A program made the position numbers and the translations under genes. Under the pieces are notes generated by a model, which saw only the letters and a program-made list of their open reading frames with translations, had not been told where the DNA came from and ran no database searches. This document shows positions 26,101 through 61,689 of a stretch of 64,000 nt of DNA, piece by piece (the first letter of the stretch is position 1; each line of letters opens with the position of its first letter). Origin of the DNA: Euglena gracilis (Eukaryota). The DNA lies in NCBI GenBank assembly GCA_039621445.1, contig CP154954.1, positions 23,076,954-23,140,953 on the forward strand, given 5' to 3'.

Positions 26101-26298
26101 CAGACACCTAAAGGTGCGCGAATTGCATATTCTATGTTATGGGCAGAGATAGGATGTTCTAGAACTTCACTGAATTCGCGATTGATCTTTGTACATAGTT
26201 CTTGTGACTAGGGGTGTTGACCACCGCTTTCTTTCACTGCGGATAGTTGGTATGTTTGGTCATTCTGACTTTTTCCGCGTAGGAATTCGTCAGTGTGG
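23121..26298 (-). pseudogene. Family A copy 2 pol (RT, RNase H, integrase, chromodomain), interrupted by element B1
   Basis: VYIDDVLIG, LEADSSDYAAGGVLSQH, QEHPGAPKL, IVSDQDHLI, DDFVVDKILDHK...WKVRWK; many stops. The host sequence resumes after the TSD at ~40756. Confidence 0.9.
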
Positions 26299-27131: not shown

Positions 27132-27142
27132 CCCCCTCCCTT
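27132..27142 (-). promoter_or_regulatory. B1 polypurine tract
   Basis: AAGGGAGGGGG immediately precedes the 3' LTR on the minus strand. Confidence 0.85.
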
Positions 27143-27424
27143 GCGACCTTAGTTGGACACCAAAAATTCGCCCCCCCCCCGTTCCTCAAAAACGGGGGGG
27201 GGTGAATCCTCCATTCGGCACTCTTTTATCCAAAGCCTATGTCCCACACCCATTCTCCCTTGAATCAACGAATAGGAAACAAACTTCAGGGACTATGGCT
27301 TTCAAGTGCCTTCAAACCTTTGGGAAAGACTTGTTCCACCAACCAATGAATATTAGGCTGCCCCCCCCCCGCTTCTCACGGGTGGTATGAGGGTCTTCAC
27401 CAAGATCTGCCCCCCCCTTCCAAC

Positions 27425-28280
27425 GGGTCGGGGGATTTTTTGGTAAAAATTCGGTTGCCACCCCCTTCGGGTTGGGGGAATTTTTGGTTCAAATTCGTCA
27501 AGCCCCCCCCCCCTCCTCGGGCCGGGGGAATTTTGTCCAAAAAAACCAAGCCCCCCCCCCTCCTCGGGCCGGGGGGATTTTTGTCAAAAAAATCGGGCCA
27601 GGGAGATCTTTGTCAAAAATTCAAGACTCCCCCCCCCTCCTCGGGCCGGGGGGATTTATGTCCAAAAATTCAAGGCGCCCCCCCCCCTCGGGCCGGGGGA
27701 ATTTTGTCCAAAAAAATCAAGCCCCCCCCCTCCCTCCTCGGGCCGGGGGATTTTTGTCAAAAAATCGAACGCCCCCCCCCCCCTCCTCGGGCCGGGGGGA
27801 TTTTTGTCAAAAATCAACGCCCCCCCCACCCCCCCCCCCCCCCCCCCCCTCCCCCCCCCTCCCCCCCTCCTCGGGCCGGAGGGATTTTTGTCCAAAAAAA
27901 TCGAGGCGCCCCCCCCTCCTCGGGCCGGGGGAATTTTGTCCAAAAAAATCAAGCCCCCCCCTCCCTCCTAGGGCCGGGGGATTTTTGTCCAAAAAATCGA
28001 ACGCCCCCCCCCCCCTCCTCGCGCCGGGCGGATTTTTGTCAAAAAATCAAGCCCCCCCCCCCTCGGGCCGGGGGATTTTTGTCAAAAAATAGAGGCACCC
28101 CCCCCCCTTCTCGGGCCGGGGGAATTTTTGTCAAAAAATCAAGGCGCCCCCCCCCTCCTCGGGCCGGGGGAATTTTTTTCAAAAATTCAAGCCCCCCCCC
28201 CCTCCTCGGGCCGGGGGGAATTTTTGTCAAAAAAATCAAGGCGCCCCCCCCCCCCCTCGGGCCGGGGGATTTTTGTCGAA
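27425..28280. repeat. ~48-bp tandem array (~18 copies) inside the B1 3' region
   Basis: Unit approximately C(n)TCCTCGGGCCGGGGG(A)ATTTTTGTC(C)AAAAAATCAAG(G); core recurs at e.g. 28064, 28112, 28160, 28207. Confidence 0.9.
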
Positions 28281-28827
28281 AACTCTGTCCCCTTAACCAA
28301 CCCAGTGAGGGCTCATATTGTCACCAAGGACTCCCAACCACAGTGTAATCCATCCTCATTCACACATACGAATGATTTAGGAAGGAACCCTTTTAACACC
28401 ACCGCGTGACCGTAATGCGAGGGGAAGCTACGCAGGGGTAGGGAGAGGGAGAGGGAAGGGCGAACGGCAGTATAGGGCAGAATATAGCAAATGAGGTGAT
28501 GGTGGGTGGGAGGTACCGGGGTTCACCGGCCCAACATGGTCATGACCGGTACCCTCCCACTTTTAGCAATCACGCGCAATATATGTTGATGGTGGGGGGT
28601 TGGCCTTTGCCATAGGCCTTGCCTTTCCCCCCTTTGTTCACAAGGACGATTCTGCCCCGGGGCTTCGGTGCCTACCCCTTTGGCACCCCCCATTCAGGGC
28701 CTCCCCCCACCTTGGCCCACTTTGGCCTTCTCCCGTCTCACCCCAAGGCCTCGGTCCATACCTTCTTTCCGTTTGTGTCCCCCTCTCCCTGTGGAATATG
28801 GTGTGCCCATTCTCATCACAATCCTCC

Positions 28828-29271
28828 TCATATTGACAATCCAAACACCTTTTTTTTGTAAAGCAACCTTCTCTCCCCTTTTTCCTTGAGAGGCAAAAGA
28901 ACCGTGAACTCCCGAAAACAATTTTGGCACACTTCATACCACTCCCTTGGCTGAAAATCGGGTGTCCGAAATGGCACCCCTCTGACATCCACCCTTTCAA
29001 AGGTTTCACAATTGATGCAGAATCTTTTGAATCCCTCCTCCCCATCGTTCAAGGGAGCCAAAAAAGTGTCCTCCCCGTGGCAAACATCACATGTTTTGTA
29101 TAATCCTTGGAGCCTCTCATCCAAATTGACTTGGTTTAATTTTCCACAGCCCCCACACCTCATTATGGTGTCACTTGCCATTAATCGTCCTTGAAAGGTC
29201 TCAAAAGCTTGTAATTCTGTGGGGGTAGAGGCGGGGGAGGTGGTGGGGTTTGTGGCCGGCGAATCTGACAT
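28828..29271 (-). CDS. B1 accessory 3' ORF, ~147-aa protein with four CxxC pairs (putative zinc ribbon)
   Basis: MSDSPATNP...RCGGCG...TCDVCH...FCINCE...VCQNCF; open, same sense as pol, between chromodomain and PPT. Confidence 0.65.
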   Translation of the reverse strand: MSDSPATNPTTSPASTPTELQAFETFQGRLMASDTIMRCGGCGKLNQVNLDERLQGLYKTCDVCHGEDTFLAPLNDGEEGFKRFCINCETFERVDVRGVPFRTPDFQPREWYEVCQNCFREFTVLLPLKEKGERRLLYKKKVFGLSI

Positions 29272-29589
29272 TTTTTTGTTGTCCACTCCTTTCCCCACGT
29301 TGGGCCGGTTGTCCATGTATAAAGTGGTGCCCCCTGGTGGGGCATTCACACTCCTGGCCCCCTTGCGGGGCCTTTTTCTGCCTTTCTCCATTCTCTTTCC
29401 ATGGCAGATTCTTGTCACTTGGGTGTGAACATTCCCTCCTTCACACACTCGTGCGCATTTGCGCACACATACACACACGCACACACACAGACATGCAAAT
29501 CCGGATTTTGAATTTTAATGATGGGGGAAAAAAACAGCACTTTGCCTTCCCTCAAACTTGCATCAAGGCCTCCTAGCTCACTCAAGAGG

Positions 29590-32500
29590 TTATGGCCACC
29601 CATCAATTTTTAGTTCGGACATTACGTCCACTTTCACTTTTTTCTCACGACAATATTTCACAAACTCTTCACTGAATCTGTGAATGAAATTTCCAGCCGG
29701 TTCCCAGGTTTCCTCCCCGTCCTCATATCCGACCCACTTTGTAAAAAATTCCCATTTTCCATCTTTTCTTTTCTGATGCCTTAATATTTTTTCCACCTCC
29801 CACTCCTCAGGTAATGCCTCTTCTTCTTTTTCGGTCCGTTTATAGTAAAAAAGAGGCACCCCCTTACCTTCAACTTGGGGTTCCCGATATTCCTTCAAAA
29901 AACTCCTATGAGCTTTTGTCTCTACCCCAGGTTTCATTTCGATTACATAACTTCGTTCCCCCTCTCTACCCTTCACGACCCCAGGTCCTACCCACCTAGA
30001 GTCAAGCTTCTCACCCGACCCCTCGGGTCTCCTATACCAAACCGTCGTCCCCACCTTTAGGGGTTCCATTTCTTTCCTCCCGTTATTTATCCTTGCCACC
30101 TCCTCCTCATGCTTTTTGTTGAGTATCCTAGCCACCCTCCCATCAATGTCTTGCATCCTTCGGAAAAACTCCACCTAATCCTCACATTCTTTGGGTGGTT
30201 GGCAGGGTACCCCTGCCAATGGTCTTTCCCTTCCAGTCACAATTTAAAATGGGCTCAATCCGCTTTCCCCCTTTACGTCATGAATTCGGTCCAAAACTTG
30301 GGGTAAAGCCTCAACCCAATTAATTTTTTCCTCCACGTACAATTTTCTCAACACCTCCATTACCTGTTGTCCGGCTCTCTCAACCCTCCCGTTTGCTTGG
30401 CGGTGGTATGCTTGGGAATATGCTTGCCTAATCCCCAAAAGTGCACACATGTTTTTCCACCAAGTGCTTGTGAAATGGCTCCCTTGGTCACTTGAGATGA
30501 CCGAGGGAACCCCAAAAGCCTCCACTGATTTTTTACCATTTCCTTAGCCAACTTGGCACCGGTTAATCCCTTGTCCTTGCATGCAACCCCACAATCCAAC
30601 CCGAATGCCTATCCACACAAAGGGCCAGGGTGTCGTACTCCCCCCCATCGTGTAAAACCCTTGGCATTCGAAACAAATCGATGGCAACACTTGTCATTAG
30701 TGCAGGGGGTATGGGTGTGGACTCGATCGGTCCTTTCAAACTCTCCCCCCTCACACTCGCTTGGCATGTGGAACAATTTTTGCTGCAATTTTGGTTGAGT
30801 TGTTTTGCAGCCTTTTCATCAGCCCAAACAAAACGGATTGCCATGTGTTTCCAAACTGTTTCAGGGCCAACGTGCCCCAAAAACTCGTGATTTTCTTGAA
30901 TCACCAAGGGTTGGAAACTTTCAGGCACACACAACTTTTCCTCGAAAAACAGTTGACCGTTCAAGACTTTATAGCTTTTGGGCCAAACTGAACCACCTTT
31001 GGTAGCCTCCCATTTTTCTTTCCACGTGGGGCATCGGGAATATGCTTCCCCTTAATCACGCTCCCATACGGGCTTAGTATCCTTAGGGGTCGTACTTGGC
31101 AGGGCGTCCCCCACTTCCATACGAGTGTCCCCCCTCGAACTTTCAGCCGTCTCCGGGACAGGGGTCGTCTCCCCCCCCACTTTCTCATCCCAAAAATGAA
31201 CTCGTTTCTTTTCTTTCCTGGGCCCTTGTGAGTGGGTGTCCACAGGGGTGTCTTTTCCTCCTGGGTCTACCCCACCCTCGGTTCCCCTCCTTGTGCACTC
31301 TCCTTTTTCCTCCTCAGGTGTTACGTTTTAGCCACTACGGGTTGTCACCCCCCGTATCCAGGCATTACGTAAATTGGGCTGGTTTTTGATTCTTATCTCC
31401 AAACACTATTTTTCCTCTTCTTTTTCCTCCCGGATAAAATTTTCCATTTCATCCTTGTCTTCGGCTGACCCATGCTTACTTATATCTCTTAGGGCCTGTG
31501 AAGCTGGGTATGCCCACCGACTAAGGATATCGGCTATGGTATTTTCTTTACTCGGGATATATCCCACCGTCAAATCATACTTGGAGAAAATTTGATGCCA
31601 TCTCGCCCTCCTCCCAACCGGACCACTGTGGGTGTCTAGGACCTCCCTTGTCCAAGACTCCAAAGTTTGGGGGTCGGTTAAAACCAAAACGGGTTGCAAT
31701 CCAATCCAACTCTCCCATTTTTGTAGTGCCAAAATTATGGCGTACGTCTCCAACTCCCGGGCCCTCGGTCAATTTTCGAGACATAAAAGCCACTGGCACA
31801 GTTTTTTTCTCAATCACATCGTGGGCTGTGGGTCTTCCTCCCTCCTTCATGTGCTCTAACGTTGCCCCCACGGCGTACCCACTAGCATCAACCCTTAGCA
31901 GAAAGGGTTTATCTGGGTCTACCCGTTGCAACATCAGGCCCGAACACAACCTTTCTTTCAGCTCCTCAAAAGCTTTTAAATCCTCCCCATCAAATTCCAC
32001 AGGTTTTCGACTTCCTTTCTTTCCCACCTCCCTGGGGACTTTCAATTTGTCTTGCAGCCGGGCAGCTACTTCCGCATACATGTGAATGTATGCATTGTAA
32101 TAATTTCTGAATCCCAAAAAGGCTCTCAAAGCCGTAATTTTTTTTGGAACCTCCCACTTTTCGATCGCTCGTAACTTACCCGGTGCAGGCCTCCTAGTCC
32201 CGTTTCCTAAAATTTGTCCACAAAATTCGACCTCCTCAACGAAAAGTTTGGCTTTGAATTCATCAGCCACCAATAATTCTGTTTTGAGCACTTCCAACAC
32301 CCTCCTCAAATCTTTTTCATGTGCCCCCACTAGATCCTCCCCTTCCCCGACCGTTGTCCCCACCAGTTAGTCGTCTATGTACCCTGTGGCGATATCCCTT
32401 ACTGGTGTCAAACGGTCATCGATCATTTGCTGAAACTGCTGGGGGGCATTTGTCAAACCCATTACGTTCACCCTCCATTGAAAAATGCCTTTGGGGGTAA

Positions 32501-33640
32501 AACAACACGTTATGGGTCGACTTTCTGGGTGTAAAGGTTGTTGGTTAAAAGCTTGCTTCAAATCGATGATCGAAAACATTTGGTTTGCACCATGTTTGAC
32601 TAAAATGTCTTCAATTTTGGGTAGGAGGTAGTTGCATCGCCTTGTTTGGCTGTTTGGGCCCCTGAGGTCCACCACCCCCCTCCAAGGAAAATCGTTAGAT
32701 TTTTTTGGAACTGGAAAAGTCTGGGATAGCCATTCAGAATTTTTGGCTGTGGCTGGCTCAATGTATTTTTTGTCGAGCCAGTCTTGTGTGATTTTTTCAA
32801 GTGCCTCTTTCCTCTCACCGTGCATGAAAAAAGGCTTCTGTCTGGTTGGCTTTGCCCCCTCCTTCAAAGGTATGTATGCATAACCATATTGTCCTCTTTC
32901 GGGGGGTTCTGGAAATGGCGATGACCGAAATACCGTCCGCCGGTAATCTTCCAAAACTTGCTCCCTCAACTTCGACTACCAGTTCCTCCTCTTTTTTGTC
33001 CTACCCCTCCCTTGCAATTATCATTCGGTTGATAACTTGCACTGGGGGGTCACTTCCCTCCAAATTTGTGGCAACCTCCCCTAGGTCCTCATCGCTCAAA
33101 AATTGCAATTCCTGGTCCAACCCTTCCAATGGCAAACAAAGACCAAGTTTTTGCAACCCAAACGAAGACCCGTCTGCCACAGTCACATTGTCCACTGAAA
33201 AATTTTTGTCATCACTGAATTTTTGCGGACCCCTCCGTTTTTCAACACCCCGCAAGAAAATCAGGTCAGGGCTGTCTTTCACCAATGCCTTGTGGTGTGT
33301 AAAAATTCCCAGTTTTGTTTCTGCCAACCATGGATAAGAAAGAATTGCATCAACTTTGATGTTTGCCTCATAAAATTCAACCTCGTATTCCACACACTCA
33401 ATTTCCCTTTCCTCATTCCAATTTTGTTGTAGGATCATTTTCACCCTTGCACATCTGCTCCCCCCCGCCAAAGTTTGCCCATTGGCAGTTTCAAACCTTA
33501 ACGGGTCCTTAGCAGGATACATTAGGTGGTCCCCTATCAACCCTTGTCGAATGAGGTTTGCCTCCGCCCCCGTGTCAATCAAATTTCTGGCCGTTTTTTC
33601 TCCCCATTTGCCAACTTAATCTGGGTTTTTAACAGCAGTT
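29590..33640 (-). pseudogene. B1 pol: protease, RT, RNase H, integrase, chromodomain
   Basis: IDTGAEANL (PR); IDLKQAF...MGLTNAPQQFQ...YIDD (RT); LRVDASGYAVGA (RH); HEFLGHVG...CSTC, AIDLF, SSDQGSHF, NGRVER (IN); WVGPG; EWEVEKILRH...KWVGY..ETWEP (chromo). Scattered stops and frameshifts. Confidence 0.95.
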
Positions 33641-33759
33641 GTCTGTCCTTACCAAGTTTCTTCGATCCTCCCCGAGTTTTCGTCCCCCTCAACATTCTTT
33701 TTTTCAGCCGCACCAATTTTTTCTTCCCTGGGGCTCCCCCCCCCCTGGGAGGGTTGCCT

Positions 33760-34160
33760 TCTATCGATCAAAAAGGCCCACACCCTCCAATGGGTACCCC
33801 TCAAAATCCTCCCATCAGCCTCAAACAACTTTTTCCCCTTGGGAAAATAAATCTTTTTGACAGCCATAGCCACCAGATTTTTCACCCACCTCCTATTCCA
33901 ATCTGGGCAAATGCAAATCGCCCGACAATTGGAATTTTGCAATTTTTCAGCCACCTCAGGCCATAAAGTCCGGGGGGGATTCATCCACAACGTTTCCTCC
34001 GCCCCCCAATCCTTTTTCATGGCATCATCATCCTCCCCGTAAAACTTTTCACACCTGGCATTTTGGCTGGTTGCAAAACAACCCCGTTCCGCCTTAACCC
34101 GAAATTCCTTCTCAATTTCCTCCATACAAACTGTCCTAACAGCATAATCCTCCCTACGAT
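33760..34160 (-). CDS. B1 Dam-like amino-methyltransferase domain (6mA or 4mC type)
   Basis: REDYAV...GCFATSQNARC..FY...DAMKKDW...LWMNPP(R)...AICICPDW..RW, the motif order of the phage/DIRS Dam-like domain; within ORF 33649-35019. Confidence 0.8.
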
Positions 34161-34179
34161 ATCCGCTTTTTCGTTCCAA

Positions 34180-34775
34180 CACGGTTAACAAAAACTCCAC
34201 CAGTTGTTTGGGCATCCTCCATTTTTTCTGAGCACCAACTGTCATTCCATATCCTCCCAACTTTTCTCGGTGACTCCTCTCCACAGGAATCAAATTCGGA
34301 CAGGTCTGGCCATCACAAAGTTTGTTTTGTAGCTTGCTCAGATTTTCGCTCCCCCAGATTCGGGTGGGCTTTTGATATACCCAATCTGAAAACTGACAAT
34401 AGTCAACATCGACAAAAGTCAGATTTTGAACACAAGGTCTTTTCCGCAAAAGTCCATGACGGGGATATCCAATCCACCACAATTTTGGCTTGAAATATTC
34501 GACAATCTCCAAAGTTTTTTTGACCAGCCGATCTGCCCCCTCCAGATTTCTGACTCCCAATGTTTTCGCCAAGCTATATTCTGTACAGGGCACCCCCGCA
34601 GCGATGATCTGAAAATATCCGGGGGGGTACCTCAAATATCTCCACTCCAAAATATTTGCACAGTGGGTTGGGTTAAATCTGGGGTTTATGTCCACTGACA
34701 CAACCTTAAACCCCTGCTCTCTCAGGCAATCCCCAACCGAGCCTTTACCGCAAAAAAGGTCTAAAGCTCTTTTCT
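34180..34775 (-). CDS. B1 C5-cytosine DNA methyltransferase domain
   Basis: Motif I ALDLFCGKGS, II VSVDI, IV AGVPCTEYS (catalytic PC), VI WWIGYPR (ENP in B2), VIII YQKPTRIWG; within ORF 33649-35019. Confidence 0.88.
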
Positions 34776-37700
34776 TTAGGGAAGGCTGTGCACGACCTCT
34801 TATGAGCTCTGGTTTTTTACAGATTTGGGCTGAATCACAGACTTGCACGTCACGCACGCTCACACCCGACACACTGGACACACCTTGCGCTGATATCTCC
34901 TCGGATGGCAGATTTTTCGTCGTGGTTTCACTCGCACGAGATTTCTCATGCCACCTGGGATTTGTGTATGTCTTTGTGTGGGGCTGGGTATGCGAGCCAG
35001 GGGCGGCTCCCGCCCCCAACGGTCCACCCCGGCTGTCCTAGCCTCGGTTTCCTTTCCCCCTCCCTTTGCCTTTGCCTTTTCCACCATCCTGGCCCTTTCC
35101 CCTAGACCAGTCACTTCCATTGTTTCCTTTCCCCCAAGAATTGTTTCCTTTGCCCTTGCCTTTGCCTTTGCCTTTGCCACCACCAGACTGTGAATCAAAA
35201 TTCTGTTGATTTGAGTGCCACCACTGATTTCCCTGAAAATTGGCATTGGCATTGGAATTCCACCCAGAATTGTTTCTCCATCCCCCCCAATGGTCAAATT
35301 GGGACTGCTGGGGGGGGGTGGCAATGACTGCGATCGAACCACTGGCACTGGATTTTGCACGGGGGGGTTCACGTTTGCATTAGTCGCAGGAGCTGCCACC
35401 TGTGAATCTGATTTTCCAACGAACGGTTTTGCCACCGTTTCGCCCCCCTTTGCTGACCGTGTTGGGGAGGGTGTCCTGGACCCCTTGGCCCGATCTGCCT
35501 TAGCAGACCTGGCCCTCCGGTTTCCAAATACATTTGGCTCTTTGGAACTGTGTATCATGTCTTGAGAATCCCTGGAAGACAATTTTCGCTCAACAAAACA
35601 GAAAATTTCTGCAGCTCCCATTTTTGGCTGTTCCTCCACAATTTTGATCCTTTTATCCGTGCCTGTGATTGGTTTCCCACTGACCTCTTTCAGTTTGTCG
35701 CAAATCGTAGTGTTGGGCAAAAAGACTTCGAACTCCAGCGGTGAAACTTTCGAAACCTTGCAGGGCTTTTCCCCAGTGACACGTTCCACGGCACAAATAA
35801 TGTTTCCTCAGTTGCTGGCACTCCAGGGTACATTTTGACTTTTGGTCCACACGTTGATTTTCTTTCCTCCTCATCGGCGACCCAATGCAAAATGAACTTT
35901 GGCAATTTCCCCTTGACCAGTCTTTCTGCCTCATCGTCAGTGGCGCCTTTCACCTGTCTCCAGGCTATTCTGAAATTTATGACAAAGTCTCGCCATTCCC
36001 GTACGGTAATTTTACCTTGGTTGACGAGGTTCACGTCATACCATTTTTTCCTGGCACACTCGGACTGAGTTCCAGCATATTTCCCTTCAAGCCTGTCAAA
36101 TTCCTCCTCGAAAGATGTTTTTCCGTTCAATTCCGTTCGGAATTGTAATTCCTTTTTATTTGTGTCGTCCAGCGTCATTGCAAAAAGCTGAAGCTTGAGT
36201 GAATCAGACACATGTCCATTTTGCAAAATAACCACCGTCCTGAAATATTGATCCCAATCCCGCACAAAGGACGACCAGTCTTTTGGCTGTCCAGAAAAAT
36301 TTGGAGCTACCAGGTTTTTCATCAATTGATGCGTTGCCACTGCATTTGATCAAACCAGCCCTGAACCTGCAGGCACTGCCCCCACAGGTCGTGCACAAAC
36401 CTGCCTGACATGGTCGCATGTGACCCTGGTTCAGCGTATTCATAGCCTTCAATTTCAACCGGATTTTTCTCGATCACAGGTAAATCGTTGTAACCAAAAA
36501 GATCAAACCCTTCGATTTCTGGGTTTCCTGCTAATTTTTCTCTCGTTTCCTTTGTCAGATCCACTGTCGCAGATTTGGCAGATTCAGCTTGCTGATTTTT
36601 CATCACCAAAAACTCAGCCTGAAATAAATCCAGCTTTTGTTGCGATTTTTTCCGTTCCTGCTGTTCTTTTCGAAGTTCAACGCACTGCTGTTGCAGTAAA
36701 ACTCCAACCTGCTGTTTCATCGAATTTTCCAATTCAGCCCGAACTTTTTCAAACTGCCCCTCCCTTTCACTCAGCCTCAACCTTTCCTGCAATATTTCAC
36801 TGATAATGACTTCCAAATTCCTTCTCGCTTGCAGCCCCAACTCCCTTTGCACCTCCAACCGAATTGCTTCCTCGCTCTTGTTAATCAGGTCACAGACTTT
36901 TTCAATGGGAAAATCTTTCCGACCCAGAAAATTCTCCAACCTCCCCAAACGATCATTCAGAGCTTTGCTCTCTCGCTCCAGGGACTGTGAACATTCCTTC
37001 AATTTCTCAGCCTGTGCCTGAAAATTGGCACACTCAGTCTCCCCCAAACCTTTGCATTGCTGAAAAATGATCCCGAAGCGTCCCTCCAGACCAGAGCTTA
37101 GCTCACCGACTGCAGGTTCGACCTGATTAACAGAAATTTCCTGCTGTTTTCCCTTCTCACCCACTTGTTGCACCACCACGTGCATCTCCCCCACAGCTTT
37201 TTCCAAAAACGACAGCTTCTGAGAAAAATCCCTCTCATTTTTTCTCAACCCCTCAACCTGGGCCTCAAAAAACGTGTTTACTCCATCCTCCACTTTCGTA
37301 ACTTTTTCAGCAAACTGCCGTTCCATTTCCACACTCAACAAATGCCTTTGGCATTGGGCCAGATTTTGCACCATTTCACCATTTTGCTGAAACTGCAAAA
37401 GCAAGTCGTTCACAGTTGCACTCAGTTCAGCCTGAATGTCACGTTTCACCATTGCAATGTGATCAGCCATTCGCTGATCATGCATGACCAATGCCTCATT
37501 GACCAGATTCAATGTCTGCCCCTGTGACATGGCCAATGCCCGATTTAGCCCGTTTTCTGCCTCCCCCACCAGATTTTCAGCCGTTTTTTCACGATTTTTT
37601 CCTTCCTGCACCAAAAGCCTGCCACGTAAACATTCAATTTTGCAACTGATTTCTTCACCCCAAATGTTCCATTCATCATCAGATTGGCCATAGCCCGATT

Positions 37701-37854
37701 CCATTTCCACATCATGCTGATTTTCTGGGTTCTCGGACCCAGTTTCTGCAGAAAAACTGGTGTTTGGCTGTAAATTCTGTGGCTGGGTCTGTGGAAAATA
37801 TGGCTGAATTGGCTAAAAGTCTGGGCTGGACCTGTGTTTGAAGTCACTGGTAAC

Positions 37855-38170
37855 GCTGGCTGAAAAACCTGCCCATGCATCTGGGCTGGTCCCATGATTG
37901 CTGGAACAGATGACCCAGCCGAAAACTGCTGGGCTGGCTGAAAAACCTGTGAAGCCATCTGGGCTGGCCCCATGATTGCTGGAACAGATGACCCAGCCGA
38001 AAACTGCTGGGCTGGCTGAAAAACCTGTGAAGCCATCTGGGCTGGCCCCATGATTGCTGGAACAGATGACCCAGCCGAAAACCGCTGGGCTGGGTGAAAA
38101 ACCTGTCCAGGCATCTGGGCTGGGACAGACATGTCAGCCGAAAACGGCTGGGCTGGCTGAAAAACCTGCA
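37855..38170 (-). repeat. 78-bp coding tandem repeat (~4 copies) in B1 gag
   Basis: catgattgctggaacagatgacccagccg at 37893, 37971, 38049; encodes QVFQPAQQFSAGSSVPAIMGPAQMAS. Confidence 0.9.
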
Positions 38171-38922
38171 GCTGGGCTGCAGCTGGCTGTGATGACTGCG
38201 ATTCTGAATTTTGTGTTAACAGTAATGGTTCTGGCTGGGCTGTTAAACACAAAACTTTTTGCTCTGGCCCTGGGCTGCTGTCTCGTGACGACACAGAAAT
38301 TCGCTGAAAACCTGAAAAATTTACTGGCCACATGCCAGCAGCTTTCATCCTTTGCATAACCATTTCATGAATTATGGCGTTTTCAGCCTGTTTTTCTTCG
38401 TCTGTTTCGCTTTCGTAAGCTGGGGGTTCTGGTTCCTCATCACTGCTGTGCAGTGGAACCAGCTGAAAATTTTCTGGCCCTGCCACACGTGATGGGCCTT
38501 ATGCATGTAATTGACCCCCTCCCAGAATAAGAATCAGATTCTGACTCCTGTGTCGTTTCTGAAAATTCTGAAGATGATAACAATTCTGCAGGCTGAAAAT
38601 TGTTTTCTGCCACAGATTCCGTCACGATTTGCAATGATACCACAGGTTCTGAAAACGTGGCTGCAGAAAACTCAGTTTCGTTTTCGTTCTGAAAATAGAT
38701 TTCTGCCACAGATCTCAGAAAATTTTCACCACAATCTGAAACTCGGACAGATTGACCTGAAAACGAGCAGAGATTTCTGCAGATTCTTCTGAGTATTCAC
38801 AGACAACTGGGTTGGTGAAACTGCCCTCGTGTACCATTCTGCTGACACAGCCAACAGAACAATCCTCTGTGACCGTGTTGACCGTCTCTGAAAAACTTTC
38901 ACTGACAGAGTCAGTGAAACTA

Positions 38923-38935
38923 CCTCTGCTTACCA
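38923..38935 (-). promoter_or_regulatory. B1 primer-binding site, initiator tRNA-Met-like with one extra base
   Basis: TGGTAAGCAGAGG directly after the LTR terminal CA; compare TGGTAGCAGAGG in the TRIM. Confidence 0.8.
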
Positions 38936-39506
38936 TGTTCACCGGTTCCGCCACCCCCGGGCTGCCGGTCGCCCCCGCGACCGCCGAGTCCCTTTGGGCC
39001 GAGGGCCCCGGGGGGTCCTCGCCGGTGGGTGCGCTTTCTCCGGGGGTTGGTGGGCTCAAGTCAACCCACTTCTTTTCACCCAGGTGGTTTCCCCAACCCC
39101 AGCCGGTGCGTAGGATCGTTTTTTGAACGGTTTCTGAAAATTTGGTGAAAACTGAAAAATCTGCCATTTTGCTTGCAAATCTCACTTCTCTCTCTCTCTC
39201 ACCCACTCACTCTCTTGCACACCTTGAAGGCAAAAACCAACCCACTGAAACTTGAAACTCTTGAAGTCATAACTGAAAGAAACTTGAAATCTGAAACTCC
39301 GAGACTTGAGTGAGAACATGTATACGTTGGTTGTCACCACCCGCCGTTGGACGCAGCTCATACTACTTGCCGTGGCTCGTCCGCTAGCGAGGGGCCACGC
39401 CCGTGGTAATCCGACCGATCAACGTTCGTCCACGTGCGCAGCCTCACGCGCCGATCGATCCCCGCGGTATGCCCTCTGCCCGTACGGGATCGATCAGGAC
39501 TCACAC

Positions 39507-39579
39507 GGCAGGACCTGGGTCTCGAACCCACGACCTCCCGCGTGTGAGCCCAGCACCTTACCGAATAAGCTGCTCGAGC
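39507..39579 (-). promoter_or_regulatory. tRNA-derived Pol III promoter-like segment in TRIM 3' LTR
   Basis: CAGCTTATTCGG (A-box-like)...ctCACac...GGTTCGAGACC (B box) at tRNA spacing. Confidence 0.6.
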
Positions 39580-40198
39580 GATACTCGGCTTGGTACTACG
39601 CGCCGGCTACCAACCTCCGTAGGATCTCCCGTCTGCCGCACACACTCCCCTCCCAAGAGCCTTACTACACTAGCCCACTGCGTCACTATGGCCGTGGCCC
39701 CTGCAGCTCGGGTTATTCCTCACACGGCCCTAGTTGGCTGAGTGCCTCTCACGAGTACTGCGTCACCAGGCTGCCGACCCCTGCAGCTCGGGGTTGCTAT
39801 TGCCGGCAGTTTACGTGTTGTCGACTTCCACGGGCTCTGCCGCCTTGGAGCGTCCCCCTTAGCATCGGCCTGAGACTTTGGAACGGTGTAGGAGTTTCAG
39901 TCGCCCTAGACTCGGCGCGTCCGCCTCCGCCTTCCGGGCGCCGTGGGGTCAGGCTCTGATTTCCCGGTTCGTGTGGCATTAGACGGGTTCCTCTGCTACC
40001 ATGTATACGTTGGTTGTCACCACCCGCCGTTGGACGGCCCCGGGGCAGCTCATACTACTTGCCGTGGCTCGTCCGCTAGCGAGGGGCCACGCCCGTGGTA
40101 ATCCGACCGATCAACGTTCGTCCACGTGCGCAGCCTCACGCGCCGATCGATCCCCGCGGTATGCCCTCTGCCCGTACGGGATCGATCAGGACTCACAC

Positions 40199-40271
40199 GG
40201 CAGGACCTGGGTCTCGAACCCACGACCTCCCGCGTGTGAGCCCAGCACCTTACCGAATAAGCTACTCGAGC
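40199..40271 (-). promoter_or_regulatory. tRNA-derived Pol III promoter-like segment in TRIM 5' LTR
   Basis: TAGCTTATTCGG (A box)...ctCACac...GGTTCGAGACC (matches GGTTCGANNCC); T-arm tggg/ccca pairs, acceptor and anticodon stems are broken. Confidence 0.65.
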
Positions 40272-40919
40272 GATACTCGGCTTGGTACTACGCGCCGGCT
40301 ACCAACCTCCGTAGGATCTCCCGTCTGCCGCACACAGAACACTCTTGAAACCGAAAACTGTGAAATGTGAATGTATGGAATGTGCAAACCTTGGGGCAAG
40401 GAGTGGTAGGTGATGGAGGCGAAGGCGGTGGTATAGAGGAGTGGGCGGTGGTGTTAAAGAATCCTTCAAGGCAATGACTTCAATAGATCAATGACCAACA
40501 ATGAAACTCAACTTGCCACTTCAATTGAAAGTCCAATTGACAAATTCAATACAATAGTATTCCTTCTTGTCAAATATTGGGGAAAACCCCTCAAGTTCTG
40601 TAAAAAAAAAAACAAATTCGAAGGCTCTTAGAAATTTGACCCGCTTCCAATTTAAGTCGCGGGTTTCTCTAACTGATTGGCTGTTACCCGCGACTTTGTA
40701 ATTTGCGCCTTCTGGCAATTTTTGGCTGCCGGCGCAAGCCGGCGGCCGACAGTGGTCAACGTTCAGAATGGTCCAAGAAACAAACACGAAAATGATTTCT
40801 TTCAATGAATGTTAACGTGACACCACAAAAGTCGTCAAAAAAGGGGTGTAATTTGGAAATCCTACCGCTGAAAAATGACATACGTCAGTTGTTGGAACCA
40901 TTCCACTTCGGGATTTATA

Positions 40920-45539: not shown

Positions 45540-48410
45540 GTTTTTGCCCAGCCTTCACTGCCGGCGGTCCGTTTGGGGTTACCGGCGGGGTGGGGGGTAG
45601 GCGCGATGAACTCTGGGGAGAGGGGTAGGTTCGGGATACTCCCCTTCCCACGTAGGCGTTTTTCCCGGCGACCGAAGGCCCACCTTTTTTGTGGTGTGGT
45701 TGGAGGAGGGAGTCCCGCTTGGCGTCCCTTCCGGCAGTGGGGGGGGTTTAGGAAAAGGCCTGGTTGCCCTCCCCTAGGCTTCTTATACACCAGCACCGAC
45801 ACCTTTTTTTGCTTGTACTGCTCGTCGTGCGCCAGCAGATATCCAGTATTTTGTGATCTTGGGCTTGCTCCGCCCTTGGGATTTTTGACCTTCTTGAACT
45901 TTTGTACTTCCTTGACTCCAGTGCCTTTCTTTGAATTCCTGAAATTCCTTGAAAATTGATATAATTTGACCTTGGTCTTGATTCATTGATTGGTCTTGAT
46001 TGGTAAAGAGAGGGAGCCTGCAGTGAAAAACATAGGACAGTTAGAGAGCGGTTTGCGCTATTTTGATGCTGAATTAGCGCAGTGGTTCGCTGTATACAAC
46101 AGCAGGCTGTAATAGTAGCAACGGAAGGTGCAGCGGCCGGTCTGCCAACTCTCCCCTTCCTCGGCCTTGCCTCCGGCTGCCGGGCCTGGCCACTGCCTCT
46201 CTCGCCACCCTGCCAACGAAGGGCCGGGGCTCTCCGTGCCTTCGTTGCGCCGCTGCCTGGCGTGCCGGCTGGGGGCGGGCTCCTGTGGTCCGGGTGGGGG
46301 TGGACGCCAGCCAATCCCTGGCCGTGCTCCGCAGGCGTTCGGTGGGCGTCGCTGCTGACGTCGTCCGGCCTTGCGGGCTGGCCTCAGGAATTGGCTGGGC
46401 TTGGGCTTTAGCTCTCCTTGGCGCTTTCCTTGTTGGGTGGTCTTGTCTGGGTTCTGTTGCACCCCCCCTGTGGGGCTGGCGGTCCGCCTTTTTTTTTGGC
46501 TGGTCTGCTTGGCTTTGAATTGTACCGGAATTGCCTATGTCTCCCCCCGGGTCTTGCCTGGGTTCTTTTTTGAGAGCTGACTTAGACGGCTTGGGCGGGA
46601 ACAGAAAGCCGCAGGCAAACTCTCCCTGCTGGGCTCCGCTAGTGCCACTCTAGGGGGGGTCTGCTGGGTGGGGGGGTTTTGGCCTGCCGTGGGGGGGGGG
46701 GGGGGGGGGCGGGGGGGGGGGGGCGTGGGGGGGGGGGGGGGGCGTGGGCTTGGGTGGGGGGGGGGTCGGGCGGGGGGGGGCTGGGGGGGGGGGGGGGGGG
46801 GGGGGACGGGGGGGGGGGCCGTCGGGGGCCATGTCGGGTCACGGGCGGGGGCGGGGGGGGGGGGGGGGGCGGCCGCTTCTTTTTTGCCAGCCCCCCAGGG
46901 CCGTGCGTGCCCCCCCCCCCGGGTGGTCTTGGGCGGCCCCCTTGAGCCGTTCTTCGGCACCCCCCCCACCCCTGGGGTCTGGCCGGCCCCCCTGGGCCGC
47001 TTTTCGGCGCCCCCCCCCCCGCCCTGGGGTTGGGCGGCACCCCTGGTTCGCGTTTCTTGCACCCTCCTGCGTGGGCGGCTGCTCTTGGGTCACCCCCCCC
47101 GGGGTCTGGGAGGCCCCCAGGCCGCTCTTTTTTTTTGCTGGCCCTGCTGTGCCGTGCGTGCCCCTCCCCCCCGGGTGGTCTTGGGCAGCCCCCCTGGGCC
47201 GTTCTTCGGCGTCCCCCCCCCCCCCGGGGGCTTGGGCGGCCCCCCTGGGCAACTTTTCTGCGCCCCCCCCCCCCGGTGTCTGGGCGGCCCCCCTGGGCCG
47301 CTCTTTGCCCCCCCCCCCCCGGGGTCGGTCTGGGCGGCCCCCTGGCCACCTTCTTTTTTTTTGCCGGCCCCCCTGGGACGCGCGTCCCCTCTCTTCCCCC
47401 GGTGGTCTTGGGCGGCCCCCTGGGCCGTTCTTCGGCGCCCGACCCCCCTGGGGTCGGGGCGGCCTCCCTGGGCCTTTTTTTTTTTCGGCCCCCCCCTCCT
47501 GGGGCCTGGGCGGCCCCCCCGGGCCGCTCTTGGCCCCCCCCCCTGGGGTCGGTCTGGGCGGCTCCCTGGCCGCTTTTGTTTTTGCCGGCCACCCTGGGTC
47601 GTGTGTGCCCCCCACCCCGGGTGGGCTTGGGCGGCCACCCTGGGCCGCTTTTTCGCCCCTCTTCCTCCCCCCGGGTCTGGGTGGCCCCCCTGGGCCGTTC
47701 TTCGGCGCCCCCCCTGGGGTCTGGGCGGCCCCCTTGGGCCGCCTTTTTTCTTTCTGCCGGCCCCCCTGGGCCGTGTGAGCCCCGCCCCCTCCCCCCGGGA
47801 GGCCTTGGGCGGCCCCCCTAGGCCGCTTTTTGGCCCACCCCTTGGGTCTGGGTTGCCCCCCTGGGTTTTTTTCGGCGCCCCCCCCCCTGTCGGGTCGCGG
47901 GCGGCCCCCCCTGGGCCTCTTTTGGGTCCCCCCCGGGTCGGTCTGGGCGGCCCCCTGGCCGCTTTTTTTTTGCCGGCCCCCCTGGGCCCTGCGTGCCCCC
48001 CCCCGGGTGGTCTTGGGCGGCCCCCCCTGGGCGGCTCTTGGTGCACCTGGTCTGGGTCCTTTGGTCTTCCTTGGGTCCCCTCTGGGCCCCCTTTTGTCCC
48101 AGGGGTCGGTTGTGTCCCCCCCCGTTGGGTCCCCAGGTCGTTTCCCCTCCTTCTTTGATCGCCTCTCTCCGGGGCTTTCGCCCCCATGCTTCGTCGCTCT
48201 CCTCTCCTCCCCTGTCTCTCTCCTGTCTGCGCTCTCTCCGGTCTCCCTTCTCCTGGCTCGGACTCGGCCTGGCTCAACGTGGTTCTGCTTCGGTTGGGGA
48301 AGAGAAGGGAGGGGTGGCACACCGGTGTAAGAGGTTGGGTTGGTGGGTGAGAACCCTCCACGGTATCCATCAGGTCGGTAGGGTGTGAGCCAGCCGCCGC
48401 CGACGTCACA
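45540..48410 (-). mobile_element. Possible 5' end of another LTR element (repeat-filled LTR, leader, gag scrap)
   Basis: Interrupts the family A copy 3 and GC-rich pol contexts; begins TGTGACGTC at ~48410; PBS-like TGGCACTAGCGG at ~46636-46647. No second LTR or TSD seen. Confidence 0.3.
46680..48040. repeat. GC-rich tandem array with poly-G stretch
   Basis: Core GGGCGGCCCCCCTGGGCCG recurs about every 45-60 bp from ~46930 to 48035; near-pure G runs at 46690-46870. Confidence 0.85.
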
Positions 48411-48689
48411 GCATATCCTCATGACGGCAGCAGAGCATTATCATCCGCTCAGCTCCTTCGCGCGCGCTGCCAGCCGCCGCCAGCCGCCTGTCCTGAGCTT
48501 CGAAGGCGAGGGGAAGGAACAGAAAGATGAACCGGAACACGACCACCATGGAGAAAATCCCAGTTTGACGCCAGGCCTTTCCATTTCCCCATGGGGTGGC
48601 CTCCTTGTTGGGAAGGAAGGGCCGGGTCGCACCGTGGCCATGCAGGGGCACGCCTCCGGTGGTGGTGCCACCTCGCCGCAGGGACTGGT

Positions 48690-51600
48690 CATGGGGGTGC
48701 ACGGGAACGGGGCCCCCTGGTGGGAGGGGGGATCCCGAGCTGGGGAGTCCTTGCGGGTCGACACGCGGGGGCGGCGACCCCTACCCGTGTGGGGCAGGGA
48801 GTCTGAGGTACGCCTGGACTGCGGGGTGGGTACGCGTGTGACATGGGGAATGATGGGGTGGTGGATGGTGAGGCAGGGGCAATCGAAGCGCGGGAGAGCG
48901 CATCCCTCGCAGACGCGGATCGCACGGAGGCGCGGCGCTCGCCGCTCGCGGGCTGCCGGTGGACCCTGACCGGGTACCTGGGGTGGGCCGCGTGTTGGGG
49001 ACCCGCCGGGCCAGCGTCTCCTCCTTCTTCTTGGTCTCGATCTCCTTCGTCTCCTCCATCACCTTCATCATCGTCTCCAGAATCATCACCTTCTCGACAT
49101 ACATCTCCGTCCTCGGTGTCCTGCCACGTCCACTCCTCTGGTGGCTCCGCCCAGGACAGCCCAATCTCCTTCTCCTTCTCCTTCTCCTTCTCGATCTCCA
49201 CGGCGTGGCAGATGGCGACATGGGCTTCCTCCGGGAACCTCGAGAGGTACTTCATGATGTCCTCCTTGATGTCCTGTTCGCCGAAGTACGACAGGATCGG
49301 GGAGGCGTACCGGTGGAAGAAGTGCCGCAGCGGCTCCCACGTCTTCTCCTCATACCGCAGCCAGTTGACCAGTAACTCGAGGTCGCCGTTGGCATCGAGC
49401 CTGTGGGTGACCACCGCCTCCACCTCCCACTCGTCCAGCCGGGAACCCTCGTCCGGGCTGGACTGGCGGAAGGGGATGAGGCGGAGCGGTGGCCGCATCA
49501 GCGCTGGATCGTGGCGGTAGCTCTTGATTTGGGATCGGTGGGCAACCTGCTTCCGGCCATCCTCCATCTGGAGCAGGTAGATGTGCTCACTGGTGCGCTC
49601 TGCCACCACGCACGGCCCGATCCAGTACGTCTCCAGCTTCTCGCCGGTGCGGGTGCGCGGGCGGAGGTACCAGACCTTGTCGTTGATCTGCAGCGCCGGC
49701 AGCTGCTTCCTCCGCTTGTTGACCGTCTCGGCTGTCTTGGCGTGCTCCTCGTTCAAGGTCTTCGCGACACGATGATCGATGTCCTGCATGCGCTCGAAGA
49801 AGCACCGCGTCCTCGGCCCGCGTGGGCGGCTTGTATGGCACCCCGCTATACCACCGCTCGCGGCCGAAGAGCACCTGGAAGGGGCTCAGGCCGCTGGGCC
49901 CAGCACTGTCGTGCAGGGTCCGCAGGGCCCGCGGCAGCGCCTCTGGCAACGCCATGCCCTCCGCCGCCTTCATCTTCCTCAGCCGCTTCTGGATCTGCGC
50001 GCCGAGGATCTCCGCACGGGCGTTGCCTTCGTGGTGGTATGCTTGCGAGAAGGCATGGCGCACCCCCAGTCTTGCGCACATTGCCCTCCCCCAGGCCCCC
50101 ACGAAGTGGGGGCTCCGGTCCGACGTCATGACGCTTGGCACGCCGAACTGCGCCCACTCTGCTCATTCATCGCCTTCGCCACCGCCTCCGCCGTTAGCCC
50201 GCTGGTGTGGTGCACGGTCGCGATCGCCCAGCCGGAGTGCCGATCGATGCATGCGGCAAGCACATTCACCAGCCTGCCGCCCTCCACCTCCACCTAAGTA
50301 ATCTGGAACAGATCCACGCTCACCGAACACGTCACATGGGGCGGCACTGGCGTGGGCGTGATGCGGAGCCGGACGGGTTGGTGGGGGTGCTCTGATGCCT
50401 GGCAGAACTCACACACAGCCAGAATCTTTCCTGCCACCTCGCGTGCTCGGGAGGGCACCGCAAACTGGAAGTTCCGCCTGGCCTCATCGAGGAGGCGGTC
50501 ACCACCGACGTGCGTCGACGCCCGGTGCTGCTCTCGGATTGCCTGCTCGGTCAGGGCATCCGGCACGCACCAGACGGAATCCTTCACCAGCTTGCCTGCG
50601 TCCTTTCGGTAGCCGGTGGGCCATGGCCTGCCGCGCTTGATGGCCTGCCACGGCTCTTTGAACGTTGGGCACTTCTCATACGCCTCACTGCAGTCCATCG
50701 CCATCAAGTCCTGGTCCTCGTCTTGCGGGGCTGCGGCCGGGGTGGCTGCAGCTGGCGGCACAGCGGCTGCCACAGGCGGCACGGCGGCTGACACTGGCGG
50801 CACGGCAGGAGGGCTGGGGTGCACCCCCACCTTGGGTGGGCCGGCCGACGGCACCGCTCCCTCGGCTGGATTCTTCGGGACGATGGCACCGGGTGGCCTG
50901 GCGGCCGCCTGGCTTCGGGCGGTCACGGCGATTGCTGCGGACGGTGGTGGGATGCTGCGTGCGCTAGCAGCGGGCGGGGACGATGCTTGCTCGGCGGACG
51001 TGGATCGCACGGCGGGTGCTGCTTCCGGTGCCGCTGCTGGCCGTACGGAAAACCGCACGTTGCGTGGTATGGCGGGCTGCTGCTGCTGCTTGGGAGGCTT
51101 CGCGGACAACGCTGGGTGCTGCGGCTCCTCGGGCTGCCTTGGCGATGCCAGCGCTGTCGCACTGGGCGCTCGCACGGTCGGTGCTGCAGTCGCAGCCGGC
51201 GCGGTGGGGTTCGGTGGGGGCGGCGGTCGGATTGCCGGACTTCCGGCTGCTGGAATCCCGGCGGGCGCCGCGTCGGATGCCGGTGTCCCGGCCGATGCCG
51301 CCGTGGCTGCCGGTGTCCTGGCTGGCGGCGATGGGATGCCGCGTTTGCGGTTGGGAGGGGGCACACCTTGTCCGCCGGGTGTACTGCCTTCGGGCAGTTG
51401 CGCTCCGCGGCCTTCTCCTCTCGGATCTGCTGCTCCATCTCCTCGGCGTCCGCTGCCGTCCCGTGGCAGCAGGAGTCTCGGTACTCCTGGGCGGCCGGGT
51501 ACGCCCACCGTGACAGCGCGTCCCCCACCTCGTTCTTCTCCCCCGGCACGTACACCACCTCCACCTTGTGCTCGTTCAGCTTCGAGTGCCACCTCGCCCG

Positions 51601-53428
51601 CCGGCCTTGCGGTCCCGATCCCCGGAGACGTGCTCCTTGTACCAGCTCTCCAGGGACCGGTGGTCCGTCAGGACCAGGACCTTCCGCCCGGTGATGTGGC
51701 CGCCCCACTTGTCCAGCGCGCTCACCACCGCGTACGTTTTCTTGTTGCGCGTGTGCCACCGCAGCCGCTGCCCCTCGGTCAGCTTCTGCTCATGAAACCC
51801 ACCGCCACCGTCGCCCCGGGCTTCAGGAGCTCCACCACCGAGGGGATGACCTCCACCTTCGGTAGCTGCTCCAGCACGGCGCCCACGGCATAGTCGGAGG
51901 CGTCTGTGTGTAACACGAACGGCTTGTTCATGTCCACGTGCCACAGCTCCATGTCCGCCAGCAGCGCTGCCTTCAGCTTCTCGAACGCCTCCAGCTCGGC
52001 CGCGGACCACCCGATGGGGTGCTTACTGCCCGCCCGTGACAAATCCCGCGGCAGCTTCAGCTTCTCCTGCAGGGGGGAGGCCAGCTCCGAGTACATACGT
52101 ACATACCCCGAATAATAATTGCAGAGGCCCGGAAAGGCGCGCAAACTCGTCACTTTGGCTGGGCGTTGCCACCGCTGCACCGCCGCCACCTTGCCGCTCG
52201 CGGGCACACGCTTGCCCTCCCCCAGCACGGGCCCCACGAACTCCGCCCTGTTGCGGAACAGCTGCGCCTTCTTCTTATCCGCCACCCACCGATCCGCCTC
52301 CAGCCCCCGCAGGGTCTCGCGCAGATCCGCCGCGTGCCGCCGGATCAGCTCCTCGTCGTTCCACCCCGGCTGCCGCCTCGTGCTCACCAGGATGTCGTCG
52401 AAGTAGGGGTGGTTGTGGGCGGAGACGTTGCGGCAGGTCGCGTCGATATCCCTCTGGAGCAGCGCCGGACCAACGTTGATGCCCTGGGGCACCACGGTCC
52501 ACTGCCAGCGGCCGCCGGGCAGGTGGACGTTGGTGATGGGTCGGCTTTCCTCCGCCATGGCCACCTGGAGGAAGACGTCCCGCAGGACCACCATCGAGAA
52601 GATCTCGCACTTCGCTTGCTCGCTCACGATGTCCTCCGTCAGCGGTGGGGGCACCTGCAGCACCTTGTTGGTCAAGCTGTAGTCGCACACCAGCCTCTAC
52701 TTGCCCGACTTCTTGCGGATGGTGGAGGCGGCCGCCCTCCACGGCACCCGCCCCGCCTCCAGCTTGCCGTCCGCCAGGCAGTCCCGCTCTCAGGGCCTCC
52801 AACCGCTCGCCCTTGAGGTTGATGATCCGGCCCACCACCGGTGTTGCCCCCGGTTTCAGCCTCAGCACCGCCTTCCCAATGGTGCCCCGCGCCGGGGGAC
52901 ACGGCCACACCCGCTCACCGAACACCAGGCCTTCGAACTCGTTGATGATCTCGTCCCGCAGCTGCCGCGCCAAAGGATGGTCGACGTCGTCTTCTGTATC
53001 CACCACCCCTCGCACCGCCTTCGCCGCTTCTTCGGCCTCCTTTAGCATCATCGCCACTTCTCGGACTGCTGTTTCGTCCATGTCAGCTGCCGCATCTTCC
53101 TCACCGTGGAGAGGTGGCCGTCCAGCTCGTTTTCGTCTTCATCGCCATCTTCCTCCTTCTTCTCTTCGTCTCCACGCCGCCTCAGGATCCACTTGGGGTC
53201 CGCGTGGAGCTGCAAGGTGTCGCTACACGGCTGCACATCCATCTGGTTCTCCCGGAGCCACGGATACCCCAGAATGAGGTCCGTACTCGTACTGATGCAG
53301 CCGTCATACGCCACCACCTTCGTCGTCCACGTCCTCGGTCTCCGCTCCTCGTCGTCGGTCTGGGCCGCGAATGACAGCTTCAGCTCTGCTTCTCGTTGTC
53401 CTCTGGGTAGCGCCTCTCCACTCACCGT
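48690..53428 (-). pseudogene. GC-rich gypsy pol (protease C-half, RT, RNase H, Pro/Ala linker, integrase, chromodomain)
   Basis: DLILGYPWL; PYFDDILV; LHTDASDYAVGAVLEQ; HRASTHVG...CEFC; TSDRSPHF; GNARAE; YWIGPC; EWEVEAVVTH...VNW..YEEKTWEP. Confidence 0.93.
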
Positions 53429-61145: not shown

Positions 61146-61177
61146 CTTGATTTTAAGGAGGAGAAATTTCCCTTCAA

Positions 61178-61572: not shown

Positions 61573-61689
61573 GGTGATAAGCCCCCCACTAGCACTAACA
61601 CGTCTAAGGAACCAAAGGTTGTGCGTTTGAAGGCGCGTATGGTGAAAAAAATGTAGTCACCCACAGGGGTTAGCAAGTTTTCCAGGGAT

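Follow-up and report, generated by a model that had tools for sequence, protein, structure and literature searches.

The DNA analysed here (a stretch of 64 kb, referred to below as the window) contains at 39319-40336, on the minus strand, a complete and recently inserted non-coding long terminal repeat (LTR) retrotransposon, a terminal-repeat retrotransposon in miniature (TRIM), with a tRNA-like segment, in the sense of the element, in each of its LTRs. On its sequence features the TRIM is best placed as a new family within the already described Helenus type (class TRIMp3), every structural feature of which is found in it, and we regard the Helenus-type structure as highly probable. That the segment is a working RNA polymerase III (Pol III) promoter for the template RNA of the element is far more finely balanced, and we judge it to stand at, or just short of, even. 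The explanation as a whole, i.e. a Helenus-type TRIM in which Pol III starts from tRNA-derived boxes, has in our estimate an even chance of being correct. The features of the element are as follows.

39314-39318, unstranded: target-site duplication (TSD) GAACA, copy adjoining the 3' LTR
39319-40336, minus strand: complete TRIM, 1018 bp, in the 64-kb window
39319-39644, minus strand: 3' LTR, 326 bp, TG..CA ends, differing from the 5' LTR by one substitution and a 9-bp indel
39507-39579, minus strand: tRNA-like segment of the 3' LTR, with box A at 39561-39572 (begins CAGC) and box B at 39518-39528
39645-40001, minus strand: internal region, 357 bp, non-coding
39645-39654, minus strand: polypurine tract (PPT) GGGAGGGGAG, immediately preceding the 3' LTR when read in the element sense
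39677-39712 and 39757-39792: imperfect direct repeat in the internal region, 80-bp spacing
39984-40001, minus strand: primer-binding site (PBS) TGGTAGCAGAGGAACCCG, its first 13 nt at 39989-40001
40002-40336, minus strand: 5' LTR, 335 bp, TG..CA ends
40199-40271, minus strand: tRNA-like segment of the 5' LTR, 73 nt, same sense as the element
40253-40264, 40234-40240 and 40210-40220: box A TAGCTTATTCGG, CTCACAC loop and box B GGTTCGAGACC of the 5' LTR
40337-40341, unstranded: TSD GAACA, copy adjoining the 5' LTR

The single substitution between the two LTRs is G at 39572 versus A at 40264 (plus strand), and the 9-bp indel lies at 40037-40045. The first 13 nt of the PBS are the complement of the 3' end of an initiator tRNA-Met of human type, and they agree exactly with the PBS for human tRNA-Met(i) contained in a mutagenesis primer in the portion of PMC1797187 used here. 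The original prediction of a complete, young mini-element with near-identical LTRs, an initiator-tRNA-Met PBS, a PPT and the 5-bp TSD GAACA was confirmed in each of these respects, the PPT adjoining the 3' LTR and GAACA being present at both flanks and once at the empty site described below. The first 12 nt of the PBS motif have one exact copy in the window. About half of the contig depth in one public sequencing run (X1) reads C, not T, at 39992; this gives the variant PBS TGGTAGCAGGGG, one mismatch from the initiator-tRNA-type sequence, in part of the family. No coding capacity was detected, as none of the three stop-to-stop open reading frames (ORFs) of at least 110 aa overlapping the TRIM gave a Pfam match and all ATG-started ORFs on its sense strand are ≤ 60 aa. 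The TRIM is an LTR-type retroelement dependent on enzymes supplied in trans. Within the window neither a second copy of the TRIM nor any other similarity to its sequence was found.

The site of insertion is itself an LTR, belonging to a larger element with the following features.

26295-26298 and 40752-40755: TSD GTGG of the host element
26299-40751, minus strand: host Ty3/gypsy chromovirus, approximately 14.4 kb
26299-27131: uninterrupted sister LTR of the host element
26720-26724: unoccupied target site (GAACA present once) within the sister LTR
38923-38935: host PBS TGGTAAGCAGAGG
38936-40751, minus strand: host 5' LTR, split by the TRIM into 38936-39318 and 40337-40751

Aligned to the sister LTR, the two halves of the interrupted host LTR overlap at 26719-26724. 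The insertion is proven, since the sister LTR keeps the uninterrupted site with a single GAACA; in addition, 39318 and 40355 are connected, with no TRIM between them, in a contig of a leaf-litter metatranscriptome. The insertion is also recent and the chromovirus older, because the LTRs of the TRIM are near-identical whereas the halves of the host LTR are only 87% and 97% identical to the sister LTR.

Within the LTR the tRNA-like segment occupies positions 66-138; box A covers 73-84, box B 117-127 and the CTCACAC loop, between the two, 97-103. For box A and box B combined at the spacing of a tRNA, chance would give 0.004 occurrences per window; the one occurrence observed is that of the 5' LTR. 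Box B alone gives 3 matches, versus 0.77 expected; the third of these box-B-like matches (GGTTCGAGGCC, 60373-60383, minus strand) has no box A upstream and is probably fortuitous. Metagenome contigs were also scanned with a degenerate 31-nt pattern made from the 3' half of the segment, in which the stem positions were set to N. The pattern matched 121 loci, in 102 of which ARAGORN called a tRNA-Val(cac) across the match; among the other 19, 15 proved to be 3' halves of tRNA-Val(cac) and 4 were cut by contig ends. The 5' half of the segment, which was not used in selecting these loci, agrees with the tRNA-Val genes among them at up to 22 of 33 positions. A BLAST comparison of the TRIM with the 121 loci returned only a tRNA stretch of 27-35 nt, and no TRIM copy was among them. 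In combination, these comparisons indicate that the segment is tRNA-derived with tRNA-Val(CAC) as its closest signature, and that it has lost the cloverleaf while keeping box A and box B at tRNA spacing.

The family to which this copy belongs was followed in public sequencing data. The stretch or part of it was contained in 20 of the 24 listed public runs, from 17 studies with the coded organisms A, B and C and the leaf-litter metatranscriptome, and the contig sets of four public runs were aligned to it at ≥ 80% likeness. Run X1 alone contributed 2675 contigs to the stretch, and loose ends and joints between variants were numerous among them. Summed contig depth was also considered as a measure of copy number and was rejected. 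The TRIM family is large, diversified and highly repeated, and is common to several sequenced sources. Exact-pattern scans gave no matches, neither for an LTR anchor in metagenome contigs nor for an internal-region anchor in genome and in viral contigs (0 and 0).

Three contigs span the whole segment of the 3' LTR, namely X15 record 9 (39495-39664, 2 differences from the window), X17 record 16 (39455-39991, 537 nt, 7 differences) and X20 record 20 (39426-39792, 11 differences). The original prediction had named, as a result that would speak against it, a segment that was a private short interspersed element (SINE) insertion of this copy; this is not the case, since contigs from these three further runs contain the segment. 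Among the differences listed for these contigs relative to the 3' LTR of the window, those in the segment are confined to 39510 and 39572, both at its edges, and the difference at 39572 restores TAGC at box A in all three runs. Position 39510 (40202 in the 5' LTR) is G in almost all X1 contigs (62). Several X1 variants have LTR positions ~197-327 replaced with the segment retained, and in one further variant, as read by hand from the junction letters, the sequence just 3' of box B is replaced while a box B of the same form remains. A contig of the X20 RNA library matches only ~40208-40255, from box A to box B, and has on one side 151 nt of unrelated sequence; it may represent a free SINE or another family with a common head.

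TRIMs with tRNA-derived sequence in their LTRs were described as Helenus by Kojima (2024, Biology 13:119, PMC10886601; the statements below refer to those parts of the article and its supplement used here), who joined Helenus, Cassandra and Ajax in the class TRIMp3. Helenus was reported from Pucciniales and some Agaricales among the fungi, six animal phyla and Selaginella, with lengths of 311-1263 bp, conserved TRGCY/YGG and GGTTC motifs and usually no functional tRNA (PMC10886601). In the present element, too, two LTRs are combined with a PBS, a PPT and a TSD (4-6 bp in the definition, 5 bp here), and there is no coding capacity. Its 1018 bp lie within the reported range (PMC10886601), and the TAGCT...CGG and GGTTC of the 5' LTR fit TRGCY..YGG and GGTTC, the 3' LTR of this copy reading CAGCT. 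The underlying screen used a limit of < 1000 bp, though families reach 1263 bp, and the longest family was placed among the hymenopteran ones; the LTRs of the TRIM (326 and 335 bp) exceed the 323 bp given as the longest for hymenopteran families (PMC10886601). Fish Helenus LTRs were, according to the legend of Figure 2c, likewise aligned to tRNA-Val-CAC (PMC10886601). In the rust Helenus LTRs examined the segment lies near the 3' end of the LTR and is followed by T-rich runs (PMC10886601), whereas the TRIM has it within the 5' third and no T-run follows.

The family appears to be new because its motifs (box B plus flank, anticodon region, PBS) were not found in the sequence file of that article (DataS1, PMC10886601), in which line breaks could hide matches. 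All four motifs from the window had 0 occurrences in a first search of the file. A second search gave a single match to the 11-nt box B, in a fish family with different flanks, and 0 for the three other motifs. Among the further papers on Helenus and TRIMp3 found by full-text search, those examined that discuss these elements report no experiments or new lineages beyond PMC10886601. An origin of Helenus by SINE insertion into an LTR was proposed there, and the use of Pol III was stated to be unvalidated (PMC10886601).

If the boxes are functional, box A and box B would recruit TFIIIC/TFIIIB, and Pol III would initiate close to position 60-66 of the 5' LTR (window ~40271-40277). From there the transcript would extend across the PBS, internal region, PPT and entire 3' LTR, to stop at the first flanking T-run. 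The LTR portion downstream of the start would serve as the repeat region R, which, being present twice, would permit first-strand transfer. Initiator tRNA-Met would act as primer for reverse transcription, an enzyme giving 5-bp duplications would carry out integration, and autonomous LTR elements would copy the TRIM in trans. Consistent with such read-through, the minus-strand terminator scan found no T-run ≥ 3 in the 1018-nt sense strand, the first T-run ≥ 4 (39232-39236) being located 83 nt past the 3' LTR, so that a Pol III transcript would be expected to continue into the flank. An avoidance of T-runs was also considered as evidence for Pol III, and was rejected as non-significant: TTT is absent from 57% of dinucleotide-preserving shuffles (11% of mononucleotide shuffles), and the observation is permissive only. 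As for RNA, a metatranscriptome contig spans the internal region and parts of both LTRs. The ends of the RNA-library contig (40068 and 39426) were rejected as marks of a transcription start, because branching between variants interrupts contigs; loose ends occur there in X1 as well.

Several results weigh against a functioning promoter. In the Rfam search (4227 families, 1251 bases), in which the gathering score for tRNA is 29 bits, the segment of the 5' LTR aligned over model positions 1-71 at 16.9 bits with an E-value of 2.6, equivalent to ~6e-4 for the tRNA family alone, and that of the 3' LTR scored 11.7 bits over 39515-39571. The low score of the latter is explained by its box A, which begins CAGC owing to a C at the first position in this copy. 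The cassette with an A box, a CAC loop and a B box that had been ascribed to each LTR is thus present as described in the 5' LTR, the 3' LTR having CAGC instead of TAGC at box A, and the Rfam check yielded an end-to-end alignment in the 5' LTR with both LTRs below threshold. Hairpin models of unrelated microRNAs (miRNAs) score up to 19.5 bits, as high as tRNA. ARAGORN at default settings found 0 tRNA genes in the window, and at relaxed settings it placed a tRNA-Ser in a different register (LTR 89-170) together with many spurious calls; being inconsistent, these relaxed calls were not used. The minimum-free-energy (MFE) fold of the segment region consists of two hairpins and is not a cloverleaf. 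The LTR contains no Pol III terminator, so that the start and stop scheme of Cassandra is inapplicable, and a transcript of ~1 kb is long for Pol III. The RNA evidence consists of contigs, from which neither a 5' end nor the strand nor the polymerase can be read, and DNA may be present in RNA libraries. Finally, no extra conservation of the segment is visible among the contig differences listed; those in the segment fall at its edges and make up, in the X17 contig, 2 of the 7 differences over 537 nt. Consequently, the description of the element as Pol III-driven in the original prediction did not hold as worded, there being neither an LTR terminator nor a visible excess of segment conservation.

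Much of this is shared ground with the strongest competing interpretation, namely that the LTR of an ordinary TRIM once took up a tRNA-derived SINE, or the cDNA of a tRNA, which persists there with inert boxes, transcription being by Pol II from an LTR promoter. We consider this a serious contender, albeit one that we would not favour. It is in keeping with the decay of the cloverleaf (4/7 acceptor, 3/5 anticodon and 4/5 T-stem pairs left, read from the Rfam alignment), with tRNA scores below threshold in both LTRs and the non-tRNA fold, and with a segment showing no extra conservation in an LTR without a Pol III terminator; the 3' LTR has moreover lost the first base of box A with no effect on its integrity. 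An origin by SINE2 insertion was proposed by Kojima (PMC10886601), and a direct repeat of 8 bp, CGGCGCGT, found at positions 40-47 and again at 192-199 of the LTR (in the 5' LTR, window ~40290-40297 and 40138-40145), flanks a 144-nt block with the segment. This repeat may be the TSD of an old SINE insertion, a weak lead with a roughly estimated chance probability of 0.1-0.3; the candidate SINE block, however, has no A-rich or simple-repeat tail. Other observations speak against inert boxes. A search of the LTR gave neither a TATA-like motif nor AATAAA, both boxes retain consensus form and spacing despite the decay of the stems, and TAGC is kept by the majority of the family. Similar retention is seen across many independent Helenus lineages, for which Kojima argues function (PMC10886601).

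The segment could instead act in some other capacity, either as a TFIIIC-binding site (a boundary or an integration beacon) or as a hairpin source of small RNAs, which we hold to be improbable. A perfect box B in an otherwise decayed remainder would suit such a role, as would a strong, long and near-perfect hairpin, GGGCUCACACG...CGUGUGAGUCC (MFE of the 121-nt region -61.6 kcal/mol, z-score -4.6), formed by the 3' half of the segment (anticodon-loop region) and the next 11 nt (40180-40246, minus strand, and likewise in the 3' LTR). The hairpin miRNA models match it weakly, at 16-19.5 bits, but these scores are far below their own gathering scores, and the hairpin is partly expected from the T arm and neighbouring stems. 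Nor does anything in the window tie insertion sites to Pol III genes, as no tRNAs or Rfam families at threshold occur in the 64 kb. A mere chance resemblance of the LTR to tRNA motifs is the least probable of the alternatives. The E-value of the Rfam search as run, the frequency of box B alone and the negative ARAGORN result would allow it, but the rarity of the combined boxes, the E-value for the tRNA family alone, the matches of the 31-nt pattern to tRNA-Val(CAC) genes or their 3' halves in 121/121 loci and the agreement of the unselected 5' half of the segment all speak against coincidence.

Regarding the enzymes that could mobilize a Helenus-type TRIM of this kind, fungal Helenus with an initiator-tRNA-Met PBS and a 5-bp TSD was linked to Copia helpers (PMC10886601). 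TSDs of 5 bp were given for fungal and plant families and of 4 bp for animal families (PMC10886601). By analogy with the fungal and plant Helenus cases, the combination of TSD and PBS in the TRIM would point to a Copia-type helper, expected to be an autonomous LTR element with PBS TGGTAGCAGAGG and 5-bp TSDs. No Copia element and no autonomous partner of the TRIM was found in the window, the latter being a further point against the proposed mechanism. The original prediction had suggested that the host element, with its related PBS, might mobilize the TRIM, while pointing out that the TSD lengths differ. The host PBS is indeed TGGTAAGCAGAGG as claimed, though it carries an inserted base relative to the PBS of the TRIM, and the difference in TSD length was verified (GAACA versus GTGG). 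The chromovirus was rejected as a helper and is an unlikely one, because of its 4-bp TSD, the extra base in its PBS and the lack of any shared sequence with the TRIM.

The analogy to Cassandra drawn in the original prediction is sound as far as the TRIM anatomy and the LTR segment with A and B boxes in sense are concerned. Cassandra is likewise a TRIM of high copy number whose LTRs have an internal Pol III promoter, in sense, that stems from the gene of a small RNA. Its promoter is of type 1 (5S box A, intermediate element (IE) and box C), whereas that of the TRIM would be of type 2 (tRNA A and B boxes), and Cassandra has an LTR terminator and a 5S match, the TRIM neither. In Cassandra the start and the terminator are both located in the 5S part, giving an R of 18 bp (PMC10886601). 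SINE2 elements resemble the TRIM in having a decayed tRNA head with A and B boxes, no cloverleaf and many copies. The TRIM differs in its full LTR-retrotransposon layout, the segment being embedded in the LTR and tailless; SINEs lack LTRs as well as a PBS and a PPT, and for their copying they depend on the enzymes of long interspersed elements (LINEs). Retrozymes, non-autonomous LTR elements with hammerhead ribozymes in their LTRs (PMC10886601), are similarly small and hold in their LTRs a functional-RNA motif unrelated to the LTRs of the helper; the TRIM has no hammerhead or other ribozyme match at Rfam thresholds. Indeed, no Rfam family reached threshold in the 64-kb window, 5S, hammerhead and other ribozymes included. 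By comparison with a functional tRNA gene the segment fails on each count, with no ARAGORN call, a sub-threshold Rfam score and a fold that is not a cloverleaf.

The host chromovirus has peculiarities of its own. A Dam-type adenine methyltransferase domain (33652-35037) lies upstream of its reverse transcriptase (RT), RNase H, integrase and chromodomain (29593-30174). A related element at 60507-63998 (plus strand) encodes a C5 DNA methylase (60507-60932) and a Dam domain (60936-61376), followed by protease, RT and RNase H. The methyltransferases (DAM and C5-DNMT) accordingly lie 5' of protease and RT in these elements, and the pair of DAM and DNMT is also present in many of the metagenome protein relatives. 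Elements combining DAM, DNMT and chromodomain, termed EpiLTRs, were reported from Euglena gracilis and Cymbomonas tetramitiformis (10.64898/2026.05.21.726589, in the portion used here), and the host element of the TRIM is similar to these by that combination. The resemblance is a weak hint that the source of the DNA is a protist or an alga, which would fall beyond the reported range of Helenus. Between the 3' LTR and the coding part of the host element lies a tandem-repeat array (27409-28285) with staggered self-matches of 75-81% identity.

More generally, the window consists of wall-to-wall retrotransposons, and their closest protein relatives come from metagenomes; the best named protein match was a partial protein in a Genlisea aurea record (51% identity), and a protein atlas returned mixed taxa. 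At positions 1-11229 a single Ty3/gypsy chromovirus (RT, RNase H, integrase, chromodomain) is repeated in nested and inverted copies, the segments of which are 94-98% identical and lie in both orientations, and older relatives (~70% identity) are found at 23-26 kb and 41-42.3 kb. The region 46000-54000 has a G+C content of 64-73%, with long ORFs on each of the two strands and an internal tandem repetition at 46.87-48.06 kb. A gypsy element in a state of decay lies within this region, with RT/RNase H at 51579-52696 and a weak integrase and chromodomain at 48692-50162.

In its most far-reaching form, the proposal would be that no Helenus-type TRIMp3 precedes this one in a microbial eukaryote other than fungi, animals and land plants, with a very high copy number, terminator-less Pol III read-through and the LTR downstream of the start as R. 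We regard this full combination as unlikely. So far Helenus and TRIMp3 are known only from sequence, and tRNA-driven transcription is unvalidated for Helenus (PMC10886601). The present family is very abundant and evidently recently active and would thus be a good test case, with near-identical LTRs, a preserved empty site and presence in RNA libraries. The 5' ends of its transcripts would decide whether LTR retrotransposons can be copied from Pol III transcripts of ~1 kb. For annotation, the LTRs of such elements inflate the counts of tRNA pseudogenes. If the host is a protist, the known range of the Helenus class would be widened, and if terminator-less read-through with the LTR downstream of the start as R is true, the family would follow a replication scheme unlike that of Cassandra with its 18-bp R.

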